A stretch of DNA of 64,000 bases from Cyanidioschyzon merolae (lineage: Eukaryota): the NCBI GenBank assembly GCA_000091205.1, contig AP006490.2. The stretch is one strand, 5' to 3'. How positions within the stretch are numbered: the stretch's first letter is position 1; each line of letters starts with the position of its first letter. A model generated the notes under the pieces. It had not been told where the DNA came from, made no database searches, and saw nothing but the letters and a program-made list of their open reading frames with translations. The position numbers were made by a program, and so were the translations under genes. Positions 848 to 62,475 of this stretch are shown piece by piece.

Positions 848-1220
848 AAAGGAAACGCGCATCGTGCAGTTCCGGATGAGATTGGCAAGCCGCCCCCGCA
901 CCTGGACGCGTAACGTACGTGGTGCCGCTGCCGCCGCCGCAACAGCAGCAGCGAGCATGCCCTGAATACGCTACGCATCGCTCCGAATCAGAAAAAGAAC
1001 AGAAATGGACCACGAATTACCGGTTAGAGAATCGTATCTTTCCTGCTATACGGTTCGCGTTGACCGGTTATTCGAAATTTTACGTTCTAGGCGGAATGCT
1101 CCGCTAGCAGGACGAGTCTGCCAGGATAATGTTTCGTGCTCCCGCCAGCGACAGGTGATGTAGCGAGACATGAACAACTCGTCCGCAACGCTCTTTATTC
1201 TGCGACTAGGGACAGTTAAG

Positions 1221-1775
1221 GTGCGTATGGGCGCCGCCCATGTTGCAATTATCTCCTAGCATATCGCTTCGCGCTGCCTGCAGCAGCGCGTCTGCCTGCA
1301 CAGCTTGCAGGCTCCGAAAATGATAAAGAATCCCGACTCCGTATCAGGTGAAGCGTTCCTCGATCCGACGCTCTCATTGGTATGGCAAAGCCGCTCTGTC
1401 TCTGTGCTGCATCCGTGCCAGAGGCATTGGCGCTATTGCTGGTGCTCAAAACAGGTACTCTGCGCAAGACGGAACGCACGGAACGACCATTATCTCTGAG
1501 GGGCATTGTGCATACTGGAACTCGGACGTAGTGCTACGCATGACAGACGCTTTCACCAGCACCGATATCCATCACGTAACCTGGAGCTCCTTACACAAAT
1601 ATATCAACGTTCTGTCGATCGAAATCGATATTCTCTCAGTATCTCCGAGAGGATGGATGGGTAATGGACCTTGAACATACCGCGAAGCATGACAGGCGCT
1701 TTCACGGACACCGATACTCATCACGGAACCTCGAGTTCCAAATCCAAATATATCAACGTTCTTTCATGTAAGAAA
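1221..1775 (+). repeat. Dispersed repeat family R1, copy 1. Its ~85-bp 3' module is tandemly duplicated (~1540-1612 and ~1689-1762).
   Basis: Alignable by eye to 42489-42885. Shared blocks: ..atgggcg(c/t)cgccc.., ..tagcatatcgcttcgcgctg.., ..cagcttgcaggctcc.., ..gggtaatgga(c/a)cttga.., ..gacgctttc.. . Confidence 0.6.
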
Positions 1776-13241: not shown

Positions 13242-13688
13242 TCAGGGACCAGCGCGGCCAAGCTTTTCCTTGAGCACTCGCAAAAGTGGCTCAGCCTTGT
13301 CCGGCTCCAGTCGGGGCCCGCCACCGGGATGGCGGATCAAACCATCACCAGGTTTGCGCGGAATAATATGGATGTGCACGTGCGGCACAACCTGGCCGGC
13401 CTCCCGTCCGTTATTTACCAGTAGGTTGTATGAGGGTGCACCCACCGCCGCTTTGATCGCTTTTCCTAAGAGAGGCACTCGCGCGAAAACCGCGGACACC
13501 TCCTCGGGAGGCATCGTCTCGAGCACCTCGTGATGCGACCGCGGTACCAGTAACGTATGCCCCGAAGTTGCTGGAAACAGATCGAGAAACGCAGTACAAT
13601 TCTCGTCACTGAAAACCTTGTAGCATGGAAGCTCACCACTAATGATTTTACAAAAGATGCAGTCTTGTGCTGGGTCTGACGAGGCCAT
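13242..13688 (-). CDS. HINT: HIT-family (HINT-like) histidine-triad nucleotide-binding protein.
   Basis: CIFCKIISGE.. and the histidine triad HVHIHIIPR. The likely start is MASSDPAQDCIFCKII at 13688; the track ORF extends upstream to 13850. Confidence 0.8.
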   Translation of the reverse strand: MASSDPAQDCIFCKIISGELPCYKVFSDENCTAFLDLFPATSGHTLLVPRSHHEVLETMPPEEVSAVFARVPLLGKAIKAAVGAPSYNLLVNNGREAGQVVPHVHIHIIPRKPGDGLIRHPGGGPRLEPDKAEPLLRVLKEKLGRAGP

Positions 13689-13900
13689 CCTCAGCGAGCG
13701 TCGTGAACTTGGCTCCGGAGTACCACAGCGCACCGGCCGCCTGCAAGTGAAAAGATATTGCTTCCGTGCGCACCTGCTCGCCAACTTCCCGATAGCGAGA
13801 CTTGACGCGGTCCAAGCGGGTAGTGCGCTCCTCTGCAGCGAAACAAACATAGAACCACAGTCGAACGACCCCGACCGTGTACAGTAGTGACAAACACGCC

Positions 13901-16040
13901 CTAGACAAGAAGTCGCGAACTGGCGTACAGACGCCTCCCCGTCTGTTTGGACCGGCCCCCTACTACTGCTTCCATTTTTTTCTCATATAGTTCGACTTTG
14001 AGAGGTTGTCCAACAAAGTCCTCTCTTGTCAGCTCTGGATGTCTCTGCTCCAGCACCGCACATTTCCTTATATCGATAGCGGCATTAAAATCTCGATTTA
14101 CAAACTCCATCCGTTTCTTGCTATCATTCGTTGTACTAACCAGCGCAAGTAGCCCTCGCACTTTCGCTCTCCTTCCCATTCGCTCTTCCTTCAGCGCACC
14201 CTACTTTGCTATGTCCTCAGGGCTCCGCTGGCACTTTTCCATCTCGACCCTCTGAAGTGTACAACCCAGCTCGTGGTGTGTATACGATGTTCGAAATTCA
14301 TCTATCGGCATTGTACCAAAACGCCATGCGCACTCCTTATACGTTCTCGTCGTTGGAGCTGGCGTAGTTCCTTTTTGGGTCTTCCATCGCCCTGCTCCGT
14401 ACGCTACTACGAGCCATTGACTCTCATCCTCCTTCATGGCGCTCAACTTATTGAAAAAGTTGGCGAACGCCCGCTGCTTCCCACCGTACAGATTCATTTG
14501 CAGACGAGCCCACCGGGGCTTGGTATACTTCCCCCACAGTGCATCCCAACGAGCAACGCGAACTTCCATGACTTTCCGAAAAGCTGTAAAGTCCGCCCCG
14601 CGACTCGTCACCTCGCTCAAAGCTTCCAGGTGATCCTTCATTCCTGCATTCCATGTCTCGATTTTTTCCTCGCATTGATTATAAAGGATTCTCGGTAATG
14701 TCTCTATCTTTAGAACTGAAAAAGACACATGTCTTTCTGACGTAAGTTGCCGTCAGTACCATCTTCCGCACGCTTCGGTGCTGTGATGGTTATGATATTT
14801 GTGTTTCCGGGGTCTGCGTCAACGATAAACTCGTAATCCTCTACCTCTTGCGTCGCAGGATCCTCCTCTTTCTCATCTTCATGCTTCGCCGAAGGCAAAG
14901 CCGAGGGCGGAACATGGCGATCCGCCTTCAGCCGCCCATAGTGTACACACAAGGCTACTCCATCGGTTTCGATCATCCTAACGAAGAACATCTGCTTGCT
15001 CACTTTCAGAAGTTTGAAACTGAAGATGTTCTTCCAGTACGTCTCCCGATTTTCGCCGGTGAACTCCTCCCTGCTAACATTGAACTCCGGACTGATCTCC
15101 ACCATGATGCCATAGAGGACTCTGGAGTCGATAGTCACAAAATGCGACTTGATATTGCACATTGGAAACATGTTGCAGCGCTTTCCCATTAGGAAAGCCT
15201 TCCGTCTCTCCCACTCTTCATTTTTTCCTCACTCAGCTTCACCTCTGCCTTGCGTTCGAGCTGTCGGTCCAGAAACACGAAATAGAGCAGGATGACTTGA
15301 TACCATCTTTTTTCATCAATTTTCAACTCTGATACCTTGTCTGTTGGATTCGGTAGCCCCAGTACCGCACGATGCTCTTGTATAACCGCACGGATCGCGG
15401 AAGCTTCATTCGTACTCCCTTTTGACGCCTTCTTGTCGACGAATTCGACCTCATCTTCATGCTTGCGATCGTACGTGATGCCATTGATAATCGCCCATTT
15501 TCCACTGCGAGAGATGCCCGGGTAGAGTGCAAACACGGCGTGTAACATGAAACGTTCGAGGTTCACTGTCAAATGGTTCTTCAGGTTTGTGATGTACTTC
15601 ATCGCCCCATAGCGGTAAATATCCCGGTCACCCCTGTATCGAGTACTCTCGAACCTGTAAAAGGGATGTGTTTCGTGCAAGGCATGCACTAGCATATCTT
15701 CCCTCCGCGTTTCTTCTCTACAAAGCATCGGGTGACGAATACAGGTCTTGTCGAAAAACTCGTCTGGAATCTCGACTGGTTTGACGTCCGTCACTTCGCG
15801 ATACATTTCCCTCGCCAAATGCATCAGTCCTGACGACGCCTTGAAAATACTCTCGGAGTACGAGTCGACACGTTTTTTGATAGCGTCTCGCAACTTTTCC
15901 CTGTAGGGATCCTTGATATGTTTGAGAAGACAGGTTTTCACCACCATCTTGTGGTACGGTCGTCTTTCTTGCAGCCTTCGACGTAGGGCCTCCCAATTTC
16001 GGTCCTTCTTCTTCTCCTCCTTTTCCTCTGGACTCGGCAC
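13901..16040 (-). pseudogene. Fanzor/TnpB-like RuvC nuclease gene, broken.
   Basis: Four collinear ORF pieces: 15189-16040, 14710-15189, 14201-14728 and 13901-14179. Motifs present: RuvC-I ([15 protein letters not shown]), an E-x-TS segment ([15 protein letters not shown]...EMEKC) and RuvC-III (FVNRDFNAAIDI). The ATG start is lost (cagtg where copy B has atggcg). There is a 1-nt deletion at 15189 relative to copy B (ctaatggg-aaag vs ctaatggggaag), and a second break at 14710-14728. Confidence 0.7.
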
Positions 16041-16343
16041 TGTTTTTTTTTCTGCCAGCCGGTTACCCTGGGCCTCCAGGATCGTCGACTTGGATTTTCA
16101 TATCTTTCCTTTTTTTCGTTTTTTTGAACAAGAACGCTCTTTGAACGCTTCTGTTATATACTGCGAAAAATCAATCGAATATTTTTACTTGAGGTTTGAA
16201 GCACAATCGAACTGAAAGACTGTACGTTGCTATGACCTGAGCAAAAATACAACTTTTACAGTAGATCTACACGCTAGAGATCAGGATCACGTTTCGCTTC
16301 CATGACGGAATACGCGTCTTGTCTCATGCCTGCCCGATCTACG

Positions 16344-16373
16344 AGGTGCGCTCGCTGAGCGCGTTGCGCGCAC
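16344..16373 (-). other. Boundary hairpin at the left end of element A.
   Basis: ggtgcgc / gcgcacc 7-bp stems around a 16-nt loop. The 3' arm (gcgcacctc) is the first sequence shared with copy B. Confidence 0.45.
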
Positions 16374-16796
16374 CGCGCGAGACGCCTCACCGATCGATGA
16401 AGGACACGTGTCCGACGTCGCTTCGGCACATTCGTGTTCGCATCGCGCTGCAGCGGAAATCAGCTGTCTTAGATTGGAAACTCACGTATCTAGCGCCGAT
16501 TCGCGCGTAGCGCGCCGTTGAGCTCGCACCGGCGGCCGTCGTCGCCGCCGCCGGCCGCCGGTGCCGGCCGCCGTAAAGCGCCTCTGCGCGCCAACGATTC
16601 GCGTATCGCCAGGACGTATCGTTGTGGCTTGTCTGCGGTCGGTTGCAGTTCGTACTGTGGTGGCGCAAACGTCGTCGGAAGTGTCTTTGGAGCTGAGTTT
16701 GTTGTGCGCGCGGCGAGCTCACAGTTCCCGCAGCAAAAAGTTACTCTTGCCGGTTAGTAACAGTTTTCCGACGTCGTCTTCTTGAGACCTTTTCCG

Positions 16797-35865: not shown

Positions 35866-37074
35866 GCGACACCGTCAGCCTCGTCCACAACCTGGTTACA
35901 AGTCAATAGCCGCACAAGTCGCAATGTGATCGCCACCACCCCGCTCAATGGAAGCACAGTCAAAAGCAGAATAGCGCTCTGCGAAGACGGCAGGCACTCG
36001 TGCCGAACACTGACATGCGCTGTGCCGTCGTTGCCGCGATCGCCGTGCACTGTGATGGACACGTGTTGCCGGTGCGTCTGCGCCAGTGCACTGCTTTCTT
36101 TTCATGACAACATGGTTATATGGATCATAGATTCCAGTTTGCGGTTTGGATAATGGTAATCAAGAAAGCGTCCGTTATGATACACTTTACTTCCAAGTTC
36201 CATCTCTCATGCTTCCTCTGGGATACACTGGTCATTTCGTACGTTCTATCGTGTGCCAAGTGCCTGTCTTGCTGTACCCGTAATAGCAGATATGAAGCCG
36301 GAGCAGATGCATGACGAAGACAGAGCGGCTTTTGCTATATTACTGAGGGCATCGGAACGAGGAACGCTTGATCTGACACGGAGTCGGCGCTCATAATCAT
36401 TCTAGGAACGAGCAAGTTGTGCTGATAGCCTTACTGCCCGCAGCAGCTCGAGGCGATGGTAGAGGAGTCCACTGCGACCAGGGCGATACCCAGACGCAGC
36501 CAAACCGCCCCTGGTTCCAGAATGAATTGCGTGTCGGACGAGTTGCTGCTCAGGTCTATTCACAGCACTAGGTACTGGGAAGGTCAGGAAGCACTGGTCT
36601 GGCAGACTCGTCCGGCTCGCAGGACACGCCGCCTGGAAGGGACACGATCGACAATTCGGAAACCTGTTCCCTTTTTTAAAGTTTATCGTTGAGAGGGAGA
36701 GAAATTGTTATTTCGTTGCTACCTAGACGCTACTCTCTGTTCTTTGTTCCATATAGTGCGGTCGATACACGCACCTCCATATCTGGGAGGCGTGAGAAAC
36801 GAAGCGCATCTGGCCGTTGAAGGGAAACGTGATACTAAACATGCGCGTGTTATTCTAGCGTAGAAGTTGTATTTGCGTTGAAGTCGTAGCAAAGTATAGT
36901 TTTTCAGTTAAATTGTGTTTCAACCCTCAGCTTAGTGTCTTCAAGTGATTTTCGCGGTTTATAGCAGAAGCGTTCAAGGTGCGTTCTATTTCAAAAAATA
37001 AAAAAATATGGAAAAGGATGTGGAAGATTCTGGAGCACAGGTAGCGCCGGCGGCAAGGAAAAAAAAGATAAAAA

Positions 37075-39573
37075 ATGGCGGAGCAAAGAGGATCAGGAGA
37101 AGACGAAGAAGCTGCACGCGGGCGACAGTACGACGAGATCGTGACGAAAGCCTGTCTCTTTCAACATATCAAGGCTCCCTGCATGCAAAAGTTGCGAGAC
37201 GTCATCAGAAATTGTGTCGATTCATACCCCGGCAGTGTTCGTAACGCTTCTTTAGGACTGATGCATATTCCGAGGGAGAGATATCGCGATGTGACGGACA
37301 TCAGAACAGTTGAGGTTTCGGAAGAGTTTTTCGACAAGACCCTAATTCGTCACCTGATACTTGGCACAGGGGAAACGTCGACGAAAAATGAGCTCGTGCA
37401 TGCCCTCCACGAAAACTTCGCCGAATACGGCTGAAACTGTACTCGGTATCGGGATGACTCGCCTATTTACTGCTACGGAGCGATGAAGTGCCTCACGAAC
37501 CTGTAGAGCCACGTGATCGTGAACCTCAAACGCTTCATGGTACGCTCCGTCTTTGCACTGTACCCGGGACTGTTTCGCAAACGAATATGGGCGATTACCA
37601 ATGGAATCACGAACGATCGACAGGATGAAGATGAGATCGAATTCGTCGACAAGAAGACATCACGCAGAAGAAAGGATGAAGCTTCTGTAATCCGTGCGGC
37701 TATACAAGAGCACCGTGCGGTACTGAGGCTGGCGAATCCAGCAGACAAGATATCAGAGTTGAAAAAAGATACTGAAAGATACGAACGCATCGTCCTGTGG
37801 TATTTCGTATTTCTGGACCAAGAGCTCGAACGCAAGGCAGAGGTGAAGCTGAGTGTAGAGACAAATGAAGCGTGGGAGAGACGGAAGGCTGTCCTAATGG
37901 GGAAGCGCTTCGACGTGGTTCCAATGTGCAATAACAAGTCACATTTTGTGACTATTGACTCCACAGTCCTTCATGGCATCATGAAGGAGATCTGTCCAGA
38001 GTTCGATGCTAGCATGGAGGAGTTCTCCGGTGAAAACCGGGAGACGTACTGGAAGAATATCTTCGATTTCAAACGTCTCAAAGTGAGCAAACAAAAGGTT
38101 TTCACTGGGTTGATCGAAACCGATGGAGTAGCCTCGTGTATACACTATCGGCGGTTGAAGAAAGATCGGCCAGTTCCGCCCTCGGCTGCGCCCGTGACGA
38201 AGGATGAAGAAAACAAAGAGGAGGATCATGTGATGCAGGAGGTGGAGGATTACGATATTGTCGTTGACATGACGAAGCATGAAAAAAAGGAGGCGGCTGG
38301 TCCGGCGACTCAGGAGGTAGAGGATAACGGCTTTATCGTTGGCGCTGCGAAGCATGAAGATGAGAAGGAGGCGGATCTCACGACGCAAGTGGTGGAGAAT
38401 AACGACTTTGTCGTTGGCGCGACGAAGCAGGAAGGTGAGAAGGAGGCGGGTCCTGCGACGCAGCAGGTGCATGAGAAGCGCGTTGTCGTTGGCGCGACGA
38501 AGCATGAAGAAAAGAAGGAGGCGTATCCTGCGACGCAGAAAGTGCAAGATAACGACTTTGTCGTTGGCGCGGACCCCGGTAACACAAATGTCATAACCAT
38601 CGCTGCACCGAAGCGTGCGGAAGATGGTACTGGTGGTAACTTTTGTTAGAGAGACATGCGTCTGTTGAGGTTCTCGAGAGCGAGATACTATTGAGAATCG
38701 GGAATCATGAATGCGAGGAAGAAAATCGAGACGTGGAATGCAGGAATGAAAGATCACCTGGAAGCTTTGAGCGAGGTGACGAGCCGCGGGACGGACTTTG
38801 AAGCTTTTCGGAAATTCATGGAAGTTCGCATTGCTCACTGGGATGCGCTGTGGGAAGAATATACAAAGTCCCGCTGGGCTCGTTTGTGAATGAATTTGTA
38901 TTGTGGTAAGCGGCGGGCGTTCGCGAATTTTTTCAATGAGTTGAGCGCCCTCAAAGAGGATCAAAGTCAAGGGGTCGTAGTAGCGTATGGGGAAGGGCGC
39001 TGGGCGCCCAAGAAAGGGACTATGCCAGCTCCGACGACGAGGGTGTACAAAGAGTGCGCAAGGCGTTTCGTTACAATACCTGTAGACGAGTTCCCAACAT
39101 CGTATACACACCATGAACTGGGATGTACACTTCAGAGAGTGGAGATGGAAAAGTGCCAACGGAGCCCTGAGGAATTTGCAAAGTACGGACCGGTGACGGA
39201 GGAGCAAATGGAAAGGAGAGCGAAAGTGCGAGGATTGCTTGCATTGGTAAGTACAACGAATGACGGCAAGAAACGTATGGAGTTCGTGAACTGTAATTTT
39301 AACGCCGCAATCAGTATAAGCGGATGTGCGGTGCTGGAGGAAAGACCTCGAAAGTCCACAAGAGTGAACTTTGTTGGACAATCGCTCAAAGTAGAATTAT
39401 ATGAGACAAGATTGGAAGCAGTAGTAGGTGGCCGGTCCAATAAGACGGGGAGGCGTCTGCACGTCAGTCGAAGACTTTTCGTCCAGGGCGGGCTTCTCGC
39501 CACTACTGTACACCGCCGGCGACAACGTTTTTCTTTTGAAAGACGTTTGCTGTTGCCGGTGACGGCTGCGTAA
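37075..39573 (+). pseudogene. Fanzor/TnpB-like RuvC nuclease gene, broken.
   Basis: Pieces: 37075-37434, 37513-38649, 38707-38889 and 38890-39573. Ruv[17 protein letters not shown] and E-x-TS ([15 protein letters not shown]) are present. RuvC-III reads [12 protein letters not shown], so the catalytic Asp is replaced. There is a frameshift plus stop at 37434-37513 where copy A is intact, and a stop between 38649 and 38707. The native stop is lost. Confidence 0.7.
38236..38580 (+). repeat. 4.5 x 75-bp in-frame tandem repeat inside Fanzor copy B.
   Basis: 25-aa units (..[26 protein letters not shown]..), each re-duplicating the beta-strand that precedes the RuvC-I DPGNTN motif. Copy A has a single unit. 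Confidence 0.75.
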
Positions 39574-42003: not shown

Positions 42004-42488
42004 GGTATCGCCCAGCTGCCACGAACGATGGAGGCTAGCGCGTCCTCGTTTTGGGTAGCGCGCGTGCGCTGCGCGGCCGCGTCGACATGCGACACGCTCC
42101 TGCCACGAGTTGATCAAAAGCCTCGCTCTAGGTACCTCAAAAAGCTTTTGCGGACCGCAAGACGTGCAGCGACGCAGCGCCTGTAATCCAAGATCGATAG
42201 GCTGGAAGTCTTCAAGGAGAAGCTGAAGCCGGCAGCATGCGGCCGGTCAAAGAAAGGCCCGGAGGCGTCTCTAAGTGCGTATTCATGTACATTCAATAAC
42301 GTACCATAAACGTCAAAGGAAGGGAAGACCTTTCCATATTGTCGAAAGTTTACCGCCTAGGCGGAAGGTCCGCGAGCCGGACGAGTGTGCTGCGCTAGTG
42401 CTTTATCCTTCCTCCAGTGGCAGGTGCTGTGGCGAGACCTGCACAGCTCGTCTGCAACGCATTTCATTCTGGGACTAGACACAGTAAA

Positions 42489-42885
42489 GCCGCATATGGG
42501 CGTCGCCCTGGTCGCAGTGGACTCTTAGCATATCGCTTCGCGCTGTAGCAGGCAGTACGTCTGCATGTACAGCTTGCAGGCTCCCAGAATGATTACGTAC
42601 CCCGACCCCGTGTCGCATGAACCAAGCATCGAACCGACGCCCGCAGTGGTACGGAAAAGCCGTTCTGTCTCCGTGCAGCACCTGATTCAGCGGTACAAGC
42701 GCCAAGGCGGGTGTTCACGGCAGGCAGTCGGCGCACGATAGAACGTACGAAACGACCAGTATACTCGGGAGGAAGTATGGGTAATGGAACTTGATGGTAG
42801 GTGCTTCATCGTGGACGCTTTCCCGAGAGCCATGATACATTCCGAATTCTGGGATCCGTGGTCAATGTAAACGTTTTGCCATCTG
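42489..42885 (+). repeat. Dispersed repeat family R1, copy 2.
   Basis: Aligns to 1221-1775 (see that entry). Confidence 0.6.
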
Positions 42886-44101
42886 AAGCAAATGGTGTTG
42901 ATTGTTCTTCCTGAGCCTACCATACCGCGCGGTACCAGGGCGCTGCACTGTAGATGCCTGAGTTTGGCTGGTGCCTCGCGAGTGGACGCGTGTAAGGTCG
43001 CTCGCTTCGCTGGTTGCCGCTCGGCATGGACTGCTACAGACGTTGCGGCAAATGGATCGATCCGGTGAAGAGCAGCGATGATCGTTGGGGATTTTGAAGA
43101 CACATCTATGATTAGAATCGTAAGGAGATAAAGCATCTGAAAAATGGCTGGGAGTATGCTCCATTCATCGATCGTGTGTGGTGGCAGGTATTTTGTGCAG
43201 CGAGGTGAGCGCGCGTCATCAGCCTAGAACTTGCACCGGGGAGCGTTCAAGTCCGATGCATTCTGAACAGAGCCGGGGGCTTGTCACCTCCGTCGGTCGA
43301 GTTATTGATGAGCACGATACGCGTAAATGCGCTGCGAATCGCCTTCGGATCCTTGCTTGACCTTCGCAGCTGCCACCAATATCCGCTCTAAGGCAAGTCC
43401 GACGCTGGCATTCCAGAAAAGCAATGCGAGCTTATTGGGCAGCGATCCTGGCCCCGCGTATCTCCTCGCGCTATGCCTGTTAGCAATCCTAGACTGGCAT
43501 TCCAGCAAAGTTTCATACATTCACTGAGTACGAGTTGGGGGCCTCGCGCATCGGTGCCTTCCCGGCATCGTAACCACTGCCACGAGAACGACAGCTGCCT
43601 TGCGCCGATGCCCGCGACGAACGTCGAAGCTGTTGCGTGTCTGTCGGAAGCTTATATTGATGTATCCAGCGCTGTGGCAAGTGTCTGGGCTAGGCTCGAA
43701 GTTCGTGGGGTCACAGAAGCGGGTGCAAATGCCAGGAGCCGTCACTGCCGTTTCTCAGCGGAGCGACTCGAACCTGCTTCCGCAAATAGCGCCCATTGCC
43801 TAGCACGGCACATCGCTACGCATGCAATCGACTGGTGAAGATGGGCCTCTCGACAGGCTATGTGCTCGCTGACGATGATTTCAGAGGCCTCGAAAAATTA
43901 GCGTTGAAGGACGACAGGGAAGCATACTTGCCTAGGGCAAGCAGCATACTGTGGATAGGGACGGAGCAACTGAATCCGTTTCTCTGGTGCATCCCGGAGA
44001 CAAGCAGGTAGGCAACCAGCCAGGCGTTTAGGTAGGTATTTAAGCAGACATGCAGAGACACATACACTCTGATGCACTCGTATCCGATTCAAATGGTACG
44101 A

Positions 44102-61204: not shown

Positions 61205-61800
61205 AGCCGCTGCTGGGCCGCCGCACGGTGACAAATTTCGAACGCATGGCGTGGGCGTCCACGATCGTAGTCGTCTTTTAACTTTATTCTATTCCACGTT
61301 CAAGTGAGTGTAAACAGATGCTTTTCGCAGTTTATAGCGGATACATACAAAGTGCGTTCAAGTTCATAAACATATCCTCATCTTGCGGACCATCGGGCGA
61401 AGAATAGCAATTGACGAAGAAGAAGACGGGAGATACACGAGAAAAGGTATTCGCCTAACGGGACATGGCTGAGATTGTAGTGGCACAATGGGCACGAGTT
61501 CTGGCAATCCTTGCAATGATCAGTTGCGCCAAAGGCGAAAAACGCATGGAGTTCGTGAAGTGAGACTTCAACGCCGCCATCAATAGCAGACGATGTGCGA
61601 TACTGAAGACGAGACCAGAGGAGCTGACGCAATCATACCTCATGGGGCAGTCTCTCAAGCTCGAAGTCTAAAAGGAGAATCTGGAACCTATAGCGAGGGG
61701 CCGGTCAAACAAGGCTGGCAGACGTGTGCGCGTGGGTATTCATTAACAGCACATAGAAGTGGGTCATTTTTTGTTTCTCTGAACACATTGTATCTCTGTA
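61205..61800 (+). mobile_element. Internally deleted, non-autonomous derivative (copy C) of the Fanzor-like element: 5' leader fused to the 3' RuvC-III region and tail.
   Basis: 61320-61375 aligns to the A/B leader (gcttttcgcagtttatagcgg.. vs gattttcgcggtttatagcag..). 61540-61760 translates to KRMEFVK*DFNAAINSRRCAILK...MGQSLKLEV*KENLEPIARGRSNKAGRRV, homologous to the A/B C-termini but carrying stops. The conserved ..tctctgtacc.. tail follows. Confidence 0.6.
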
Positions 61801-62475
61801 CCGCAGTAATCGGCGCTTAAAAGCTCCGGTTCCTGCTGAGTGCATTCGCTTGCTGGCCGGCCGGCCAGCTCTGTGGTCCCATTATGAGCTACCCGACAAA
61901 CCCCTTGTCTCTTTGCATGTTTTCTATGTCCTTTCTAGCGGGAGCACGTTGTCTTGCCTACTTGTTGCAAGGACGCCTGCTCGCTCATACGGAGACTCTG
62001 GACGGAGGTGGGTCTGCATCTTCGGCCTCCGATCTCCTGTTTTTCATACGTCGTGGCATCATGGTCGACATTTTTAATGGCATCTCGTATTGCCGGACTT
62101 TTCCTTGGATCATGGGTTTCATTCAAGGCGCTGATCCCGTCGCTATCTGAGTCCATGTAGCCTGTATTCGCACAGGCACAGGTACAGGCGCAGCTCAGCA
62201 TAGCGCACACGCCAGCATCTTCGTGGCAGACAGAGAGACACCACCACCATTCATGGATTGTCTAACATCACTCGCGTTCGACAGCATCCAAGGCAAGCCA
62301 CGCCATGCGGCCGTGTCGTCGGCGTCGGTTTTCGTCGAGCGTGTATGCTATAACCGGAGTCGACATGTATCGAAATGTTCATTCATTCGGTTATCAATCC
62401 CACTTAACACCTGACCTTGCACAACACCAAGAATCAAGTTCTCATGTAGAGTCAAGGGGCCAGGTTCATGCTGTA

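Follow-up and report, generated by a model that had tools for sequence, protein, structure and literature searches.

CMe-1A is a Fanzor1 family of the red alga Cyanidioschyzon merolae, with about 150 copies that are each about 80% identical to a consensus of about 3 kb (Bao & Jurka 2013, PMC3627910). The family has no terminal inverted repeats (TIRs), its target site duplications (TSDs) were left undetermined, and a separate repeat, TE-N2_CMe, matches its first 635 bp at 95% identity. That paper mentioned neither an RNA structure at the 3′ end nor hairpins or a guide RNA, and the role of Fanzor was treated as unknown. The description appeared in 2013, before Fanzors were known as RNA-guided, and the non-coding parts of the family are uninterpreted in the searchable literature. 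Here we analyze a stretch of 64,000 nucleotides from C. merolae 10D chromosome 8 (the window), which carries two pseudogenised CMe-1A elements, copies A and B, and an internally deleted derivative, copy C. Judging from sequence comparisons, the last part of CMe-1A is probably the scaffold of a guide RNA of the known kind, called omegaRNA or Fanzor RNA (fRNA) in the described systems.

The window copies agree with the published family in the organism, the length of about 3 kb, a Fanzor1 protein as the only protein, the many diverged copies and the lack of TIRs. As published, the first 635-656 bp or so correspond to TE-N2_CMe, which also occurs alone, and two such solo copies lie in the window. 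Unlike the published element, copy A has another 5′ module in place of TE-N2_CMe.

In other Fanzors, the fRNA has been mapped to non-coding sequence on the 3′ side, next to the right end of the element, and structure conservation extends into the open reading frame (ORF). CMe-1A resembles SpuFz1 and its omegaRNA from Spizellomyces punctatus (Saito et al. 2023, PMC10432273) in the Fanzor1 fold (template modeling (TM) score 0.70) and in the variable flank that comes directly after the tail. Tails without an ORF occur in both systems, as ghost loci in S. punctatus and as one 5′-truncated solo tail in CMe-1A. The Spu-1 elements carry inverted repeats of 30 nt and, just outside their left end on the upstream side, a conserved CA, whereas CMe-1A has no inverted repeats and variable 5′ modules. 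Other differences from SpuFz1 are that the structured domain of CMe-1A reaches about 65 nt into the ORF and that protein identity is only about 15%. The CrFNuc-1 fRNA, from a Chlamydomonas Helitron2 (Jiang et al. 2023, PMC10530073), is likewise a conserved structured RNA in the 3′ untranslated region (UTR) of an algal Fanzor1, with conservation that extends upstream of the detected RNA and extra fRNA copies without an ORF. However, the Chlamydomonas element ends like a Helitron2, with asymmetric TIRs and short TSDs, whereas CMe-1A shows neither TIRs nor TSDs. The CMe-1A tail matches the description of Fanzor fRNA in position, size, sharp boundary and structure.

Bacterial TnpB elements of the ISDra2/IS200-IS605 type carry a RuvC nuclease gene and, behind it, a structured RNA whose sequence overlaps the last part of the ORF and stops at the right end. 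They share this layout with CMe-1A, together with subterminal hairpins and the absence of TIRs and TSDs. In contrast to them, CMe-1A is found in a eukaryotic host, has no TnpA (Y1) gene and encodes an N-terminus that resembles a nuclear localization signal (NLS). Its left and right hairpins are unrelated, and no conserved 5′ target motif could be defined.

Copies A and B as members of the CMe-1A family

Eight ORFs of the window are residue-for-residue identical to annotated C. merolae 10D proteins, from CMH186C to CMH199C, encoded on a chromosome of 739,753 bp. The genome is intron-poor and the window is GC-rich (GC 0.557), and against this background copies A and B are conspicuous as two long repeats that are AT-richer and strongly skewed. 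An initial annotation, made from the sequence alone, had read them as Fanzor/TnpB-type loci. This was borne out both by a fold search and by the published family. Copy B has the published layout of a Fanzor1 ORF preceded by a TE-N2_CMe part (Table 1), with the absence of TIRs taken from Bao & Jurka (2013). Copy A has the CMe-1A core and tail without the TE-N2_CMe module. By BLAST, the two copies are 76-82% identical (A 16350-13871 on the minus strand, B 36770-39519 on the plus strand).

The longest related ORF (P0001, 752 aa) is 66% identical to the repaired copy A protein, and its AlphaFold (AF2) model has a predicted local distance difference test (pLDDT) score of 76.7. When this model was compared to known structures with Foldseek, the top seven PDB matches were all Fanzor1 proteins (SpuFz, then PpFz and GtFz; E 1e-15 to 5e-13). 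SpuFz was the best match (E 1e-15, TM 0.70), and the next matches after the Fanzor1 structures were to Cas12, with E > 0.03. As modeled, the encoded protein has the Fanzor1 architecture, with a WED/REC/RuvC/NUC fold. The RuvC residues D484 (DPGNTN), E656 (DEFRTS) and D725 (NRDFNAA) are invariant in an alignment of 18 sequences that are 21-79% identical. All three motifs, which correspond to the RuvC D/E/D motifs of TnpB and Fanzor, are readable in the translations of A and B. The N-terminus is the Lys/Arg-rich, NLS-like part mentioned above. A Pfam scan of the repaired protein returned no families and a PDB sequence search with the family profile gave no match; fold comparison alone succeeded.

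The protein search for the family found 66 relatives. A metagenome scan gave at least 450 matches, and the 80 loci taken from these are the basis of most multi-copy comparisons below. These loci come from organisms very near strain 10D, and metagenome contigs have copies A and B at orthologous sites (copy A in eight contigs, L088-L095; copy B in four, L084-L087). Since the source organisms are so close to 10D, the metagenome loci were used as a sampling of paralogous copies from this genome lineage. No empty site was seen in the close-relative contigs, where A and B are filled at the same positions, and in a more distant relative the intergenic sequence was too diverged to align. The ORF of copy A has two frameshifts and at least three stops, and that of copy B is a single frame with five in-frame stops. 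An ORF of more than 700 aa was kept in 2 of 33 related copies (L012 and L001), neither of them fully intact. Copies A and B are pseudogenised members of CMe-1A and are old, fixed insertions that are now dead. For genome annotation, the copies in the window are ordinary dead repeats of a known family.

A structured domain at the 3′ end

The initial annotation had proposed that all three copies keep a similar segment of about 70 nt after the stop codon. Copies A and B do share ...cactactgtacac... after the stop codon of A, but copy C does not. Copy C is without the last 70 nt or so of the tail, as the homology of every C-like copy ends at 61737-61743. The motif quoted for it, at about 61794-61806, lies beyond the end of homology and looks like a chance match. 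Besides A and B, a search of the window with a tail model found no further family tails.

The loci and the window together provided 77 tails, which represent 57 distinct sequences. In all copies, ...GGAGACGTTTCGTCTAG GGCGNGTTTCNCGCC ACTACTGTACACCGCTGG is present and leads into a terminal hairpin, beyond which the flanks are unrelated. The 57 distinct tails are common up to ...GGCGTT(T)G, after which identity drops from 0.64-0.73 to 0.29. Conservation thus extends about 60-70 nt past the consensus stop (TAG, A 13903-13901) before it collapses. In copy B the consensus stop position (39484-39486) reads CAG and the frame continues. The pairwise identity of 33 full-length copies was 0.67-0.77 in the leader, 0.78-0.88 in the ORF, 0.72-0.73 after the stop, 0.64 in the terminal hairpin and 0.29 beyond the element. 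Between A and B, the leader was 72%, the tail 62.5% and the last 300 coding bases 81% identical. Therefore, conservation at the ends does not exceed that of the ORF, but it stops sharply on the 3′ side. Identity at the three codon positions was.85-.88,.87-.91 and.71-.78 in the RuvC half, compared to.78,.82 and.76 in the last 144 nt of the ORF, where the coding periodicity is almost gone.

The structured domain starts about 65 nt inside the ORF (consensus position 2482, with the stop at 2547). A model with four helices was derived from individual folds and then tested on an alignment of 49 copies. In this model, a long-range helix (CAGUAGU/ACUACUG) encloses the hairpins H1 (CCGGUC/GACNGG), H2a (GAGGCGUCU/AGACGUUUC) and H3 (GGCGNG/CNCGCC). 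In copy A, CAGTAGT (13968-13962) pairs with ACTACTG (13888-13882) around three hairpins. The model was 83.4% paired, compared to 39-56% with slid partners. Thirteen pairs were changed on both sides when 6.2 ± 1.6 were expected (0/500 shuffles), and there were 40 pair types compared to 34.8 expected (3/500 shuffles), in a control that does not take relatedness into account. The tool reports both measures as rarely exceeded in unconstrained related sequences. H2a and H3 alone showed the same trend. An alternative helix, H2b (AGACG/CGUCU), had no support and was rejected. A plain MAFFT alignment analyzed with RNAalifold recovered only a 4-bp GGCG/CGCC stem because two hairpin variants are out of register in that alignment.

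The terminal hairpin has three stem versions, all at the same position. Version v1 is CGTCGTTCGA-ctt-TCGAACGGCG, with an inner stem that is 80-93% paired, and v2 is (A/G)CGTTTTTC-tttt-GAAAG(A/G)CGT, with an inner stem that is 93.7% paired. Version v3 (CACGG...CCGTG) is a short form. Several positions of the inner stems are G:U. In the terminal segment, 38 of 49 copies folded more stably as the sense strand (p = 2e-6), and G:U accounted for 208 of 1066 pairs. The whole tail of copy B (142 nt) folded at -63.8 kcal/mol (z = -4.07) as the sense strand and at -43.9 kcal/mol (z = -1.42) as the antisense strand. The values for copy A were -52.2 kcal/mol (z = -3.12) and -34.0 kcal/mol, so that antisense tails are about 18-20 kcal/mol weaker in both copies. 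The v1 consensus tail reached -57.5 kcal/mol (z = -3.77) in the sense direction, and all three tails took the same two-domain fold. The tail of copy B is still intact, and the long imperfect inverted repeat noticed there earlier is present at 39514-39561. As a family feature, this outer extension was rejected for its low pairing across copies and a negative test of its arms (see below); some copies have 19-20 bp in it. In copy A the terminal hairpin (13880-13844) has decayed, and the family v1 hairpin is disrupted there.

Taken together, the sharp conserved end, the covariation-supported structure and the folding of the sense strand favor the proposal that the region after the stop is an omega/fRNA tail. 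Several points weigh against it. Across more copies, covariation was found in the four-helix domain but was not significant within any variant of the terminal hairpin. The shuffle control used for the domain ignores relatedness among the copies. The outer arms of the terminal hairpin are only 53-58% paired across copies, and a test of each copy's own arms against those of other copies was negative. Taken alone, the part of copy A past 13880 has a fold no more stable than that of shuffles (z = -0.2). Conservation is lower in the tail than in the ORF, and nearly all examined copies, A and B included, are pseudogenes. Rfam gave no matches in the whole window, and a covariance model of the CMe-1A domain retrieved none of the tails of relatives with 33-41% protein identity.

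Despite these points, we think it likely that the last part of CMe-1A was a guide-RNA scaffold. In active ancestors, an mRNA would have been driven from the AT-rich leader. The last 130-145 nt or so would have encoded the scaffold. It would begin at GCAGTAGTAGG (near 39418 in B), in the C-terminal extension of the ORF, where constraint is weak, and run to GGCGTTTG (at about 39549 in B), some 60-70 nt after the stop. The scaffold would have two parts: the domain closed by the long-range helix, with its three hairpins, and the terminal hairpin, located where the element ends on the right. If CMe-1A worked like SpuFz1 and other Fanzors, the next 14-21 nt of flank would supply the guide, and the ribonucleoprotein would cut sites that match this flank. 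Since the ORFs in the window are dead and the terminal hairpin of A has decayed, the features seen here are relics. The candidate scaffold nevertheless defines an RNA, about 130-145 nt long without its guide, that can be tested directly for a Fanzor1 of a genetically tractable, intron-poor, thermo-acidophilic red alga. It is also a handle on how a Fanzor-only element reached about 150 copies. One speculative idea, to which we give little credence, is that CMe-1A spreads without a transposase: sites that match the flank would be cut by the complex of Fanzor and guide RNA, and the element would be copied during repair, starting at its fixed 3′ end and proceeding inward for a variable distance. 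Such a mechanism would account for the constant sharp tail, the alternative 5′ modules, the head-to-head TE-N2_CMe pairs and the lack of TIRs and TSDs in a Fanzor-only family of about 150 copies.

The main rival to a guide RNA is that the terminal hairpins are DNA-level transposition signals, that is, subterminal palindromes at the left and right ends that a transposase encoded elsewhere would recognize in single-stranded DNA, comparable to those of IS200/IS605 elements or to the 3′ hairpin of Helitrons. CMe-1A has no TIRs or detectable TSDs (Bao & Jurka 2013), the shared core has a hairpin next to each edge, the 5′ hairpin folds alike on the two strands, and a constant 3′ end is combined with a variable 5′ extent. 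All of this fits such signals. However, the ORF lists show the Fanzor gene only; neither the element nor its modules carry a transposase gene, be it Y1, RepHel or another type. The left hairpin has no sequence relationship to the right one, and the 3′ end reads ...GGCGTTTG rather than CTRR. Moreover, the supported structure is more than one terminal hairpin: it is a multi-helix domain of about 90 nt that reaches into the ORF, contains many G:U pairs and folds much better as the sense strand. We therefore regard this explanation as rather unlikely. In bacterial IS200/IS605 elements the region of the right-end hairpin overlaps the omegaRNA, so the DNA-signal and guide-RNA roles need not exclude each other and may coexist. 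A Helitron or Helitron2 was considered separately and rejected, because there is no RepHel ORF, the 3′ end lacks CTRR and the 5′ ends are heterogeneous.

The strand specificity of the folding would suit any role at the RNA level, including that of an ordinary mRNA 3′ UTR element for termination, 3′-end processing or stability. The position of the tail directly after the consensus stop and the T5 and T4 runs in the v2 hairpin could also be expected of such an element. Yet the domain begins well inside the ORF, where the coding periodicity fades, conservation stops exactly at the element boundary, and the experimentally studied Fanzors all use this region as guide RNA. A 3′ UTR element without guide function thus seems very unlikely. 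It is equally hard to believe that nothing here was functional and that the similarities at both ends reflect only shared ancestry in a decaying repeat, with hairpins formed by chance in GC-rich sequence. Such decay could account for dead copies A and B, for ends that are less similar than the ORFs, for a 5′ hairpin peculiar to A (see below), for the chance motif near copy C and for the missing covariation within terminal-hairpin variants. It would not be expected to double the number of pairs changed on both sides (0/500 shuffles), to keep 83% pairing when slid partners give 39-56%, or to preserve a hairpin at one position with three different stems. The z-scores of -3 to -4 on one strand only and the sharp conservation boundary also speak against it.

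Hairpins, modules and leader on the 5′ side

Both hairpins that had been proposed for the left end are present. In copy A, ggtgcgc and gcgcacc form a 7-bp stem around a 16-nt loop (16374-16345, minus strand), one base off the coordinates first given, and in copy B, gtgcg and cgcac form a 5-bp stem around a 9-nt loop (36756-36774). What had been made of them fared less well. The homology was said to start at the 3′ arm, and the A/B BLAST alignment does begin there (16350/36770, at cgcacctc). However, when the 5′ ends of 38 non-redundant copies were aligned, the shared sequence proved to start 17-20 nt before cgcac and thus to include the 5′ arms. The claim that the 5′ arms differ while pairing is kept by compensatory changes was therefore not sustained. 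The core starts as (C)AT-CGCGCTCGGTGAGCGCACCTGGGAGATC... in an alpha form and as ATAGCGCGGTCGATACGCGCACCTCCATATCTGG... in a beta form, and all core starts are preceded by (C/A)AT or TAG. The recurrent hairpin is GCGCTC-ggt-GAGCGC in alpha (A 16362-16348) or GCGCG-gtcgata-CGCGC in beta. The two forms keep the GCGC/GCGC stem with different inner pairs and loops, and they represent two lineages only. The 7-bp pairing of A uses sequence of its upstream module. Other copies with this module read ggtgcac...gcgcaac, with two mismatches to the pairing in A, so the 7-bp hairpin is peculiar to A. The 5′ hairpin is also weak, with a mean minimum free energy of -7.2 kcal/mol compared to -5.9 kcal/mol for shuffles (a gain of 1.3; Wilcoxon p = 6e-4), and its folding has no strand bias.

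The flanks upstream of the core are not unique but fall into about five repeated families. The hairpin of copy B lies 660 bp inside the element, after a TE-N2_CMe module that moves with it, and that of copy A lies 126 bp inside. The upstream module of A (family 1) is 82-89% identical to nine loci (L005, L019, L034, L039, L040, L052, L053, L063 and L081) up to 16488, past which the flank of A is unique. Because the modules upstream of the core are repeated, the 5′ hairpin marks a module junction and not the end of the mobile unit. The GCGC...GCGC hairpin would then be the core edge at which different upstream modules join, TE-N2_CMe in B and another in A. The suggested hairpin end of the IS200/IS605 type does not hold, as the hairpin is not at the true left boundary in A or B. 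The 5′ side is thus a mosaic of modules rather than a simple hairpin-bounded unit. The ORF lists contain no IS200/IS605-type Y1 HUH transposase (TnpA), and Fanzor is the only conserved reading frame in these elements of 2.6-3.5 kb. Flanks outside the TE-N2_CMe left end, compared for a transposon-associated motif, have no common motif beyond a T-rich start, and the 5′ modules vary.

In two upstream families, the core stands head-to-head against the left end of an inverted TE-N2_CMe. Head-to-head Fanzor copies in which the 5′ edge of the core abuts an inverted TE-N2_CMe were seen in L026 (2904/3588), L031 (1747/2431) and L004 (1641/2949). Several independent loci have nearly the same junction, which may point to a site where insertion or recombination is preferred.

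The AT-richer leader of about 280 bp described in the initial annotation is real in composition (GC 0.40, compared to 0.50 in the ORF and to the window value above), but it is shorter, at 246 nt in A and 233 nt in B up to the consensus ATG (A 16101, B 37008). A TATATAA box lies about 55 nt before this ATG in A. The leader is probably a promoter plus 5′ UTR, with its promoter function inferred.

Coordinates and minor observations

Table 1. Positions of CMe-1A copies, their parts and related repeats in the window
Feature	Position	Strand	Basis or remark
Copy A, CMe-1A-type Fanzor1 pseudogene (138-bp upstream module, shared core and tail)	13844..16488	-	BLAST against B and 80 loci
Copy A upstream module (family 1)	16351..16488	-	repeated in other loci, about 570 bp there
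Copy A earlier-noted hairpin, ggtgcgc, 16-nt loop, gcgcacc	16345..16374	-	7-bp stem
Alpha-type recurrent 5′ hairpin in A, GCGCTC-agc-GAGCGC	16348..16362	-	38-copy alignment; start of core common to all copies
Copy A AT-rich leader	16102..16347	-	TATATAA 16160-16154; consensus ATG 16101-16099
Copy A Fanzor1 ORF remnant	13901..16101	-	TAG stop 13903-13901; translations, alignments, fold search
Copy A candidate omega/fRNA scaffold	13844..13968	-	fold energy; nhmmer tail model match 13926-13840
Copy B, complete CMe-1A element, pseudogene	36095..39562	+	architecture as in Bao & Jurka 2013
Copy B TE-N2_CMe-like 5′ module, 656 bp	36095..36750	+	65-72% identity over about 600-680 bp to about 30 loci and the solo copies in the window
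Copy B earlier-noted hairpin, gtgcg-gtcgataca-cgcac	36756..36774	+	variant of beta-type GCGCG-gtcgata-CGCGC
Copy B AT-rich leader	36775..37007	+	degenerate TATA (tttatag) 36958-36964; ATG 37008
Five tandem 75-bp (25-aa) repeats in B ORF, just upstream of RuvC-I	38196..38571	+	Tandem Repeats Finder
Copy B candidate omega/fRNA scaffold	39419..39561	+	fold energy, helix counts (49 copies)
Copy B long-range helix	39419-39425 with 39502-39508	+	
Copy B H1	39432-39437 with 39444-39449	+	
Copy B H2a	39450-39458 with 39472-39480	+	
Copy B H3	39487-39492 with 39496-39501	+	
Copy B terminal hairpin	39514-39561, conserved inner part 39525-39546	+	v2 inner hairpin 93.7% paired
Copy C, internally deleted derivative	61292..61743	+	leader fragment 61292-61370 and C-terminal fragment (about 200 bp) 61534-61743
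Solo TE-N2_CMe-like element, no Fanzor gene	42303..42891	-	
Second solo TE-N2_CMe-like fragment, no Fanzor gene	1085..1585	-	

Copy C belongs to a small subfamily of deletion derivatives that join a leader to a C-terminal fragment (L063/L034 2330-2690, L019 7303-7672 and L035 7476-7745). Since these derivatives end about 70 nt before the normal 3′ end, they have no terminal hairpin. The two solo TE-N2_CMe-like repeats are 68-70% identical to the 5′ module of copy B. Beside the first of them, the short segment 42201-42286 matches the last part of the copy C fragment (61659-61743) at 72% identity.

The 25-aa unit of the tandem repeats in the B protein is acidic and Lys-rich, and its copy number varies, with about one in A, five in B and more in the related protein P0009. 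The repeat region is disordered and of low confidence in the AF2 model.

A 5′-truncated solo tail of about 100 nt, from CGTCAGTTGGAGACG to the terminal hairpin, is joined to an unrelated repeat in L039 (2786-2888), L040 and L081 (about 890-1000). It was rejected as a ghost family, being one insertion in duplicated regions.

By eye, the tails of relatives at 33-41% protein identity have short similarities to those of CMe-1A (AAAAAGACGGGGAGG, GGCG-loop-CGCC and CCAC(C)TAC..TAC). Because the covariance model misses these relatives, the similarities are treated as anecdotal and are not relied on. No TIR seed was found in the same relatives, and the viral contigs contained one distant relative only. 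In three loci at 33% protein identity (L098, L099 and L100), the Fanzor gene is closely preceded by a fragment of a DDE_3 (Tc1/mariner-type) gene. These loci represent separate insertions of a single element: they are identical as far as ...CAGGAGTATA, about 180 nt past the stop, and have diverging flanks beyond it. Their ends read ...GGAGTATA, and the relative on a viral contig (L101) also ends in GGAGTATA.

Downstream of copy A, a mechanically called ORF of 202 aa for a HIT-family protein (13242-13850, minus strand) begins at an ATG inside the decayed terminal hairpin. In related contigs the HIT-family gene at the same place is called as 148 aa. With that call, copy A lies about 150 bp upstream of the HIT-family gene, in the same orientation.

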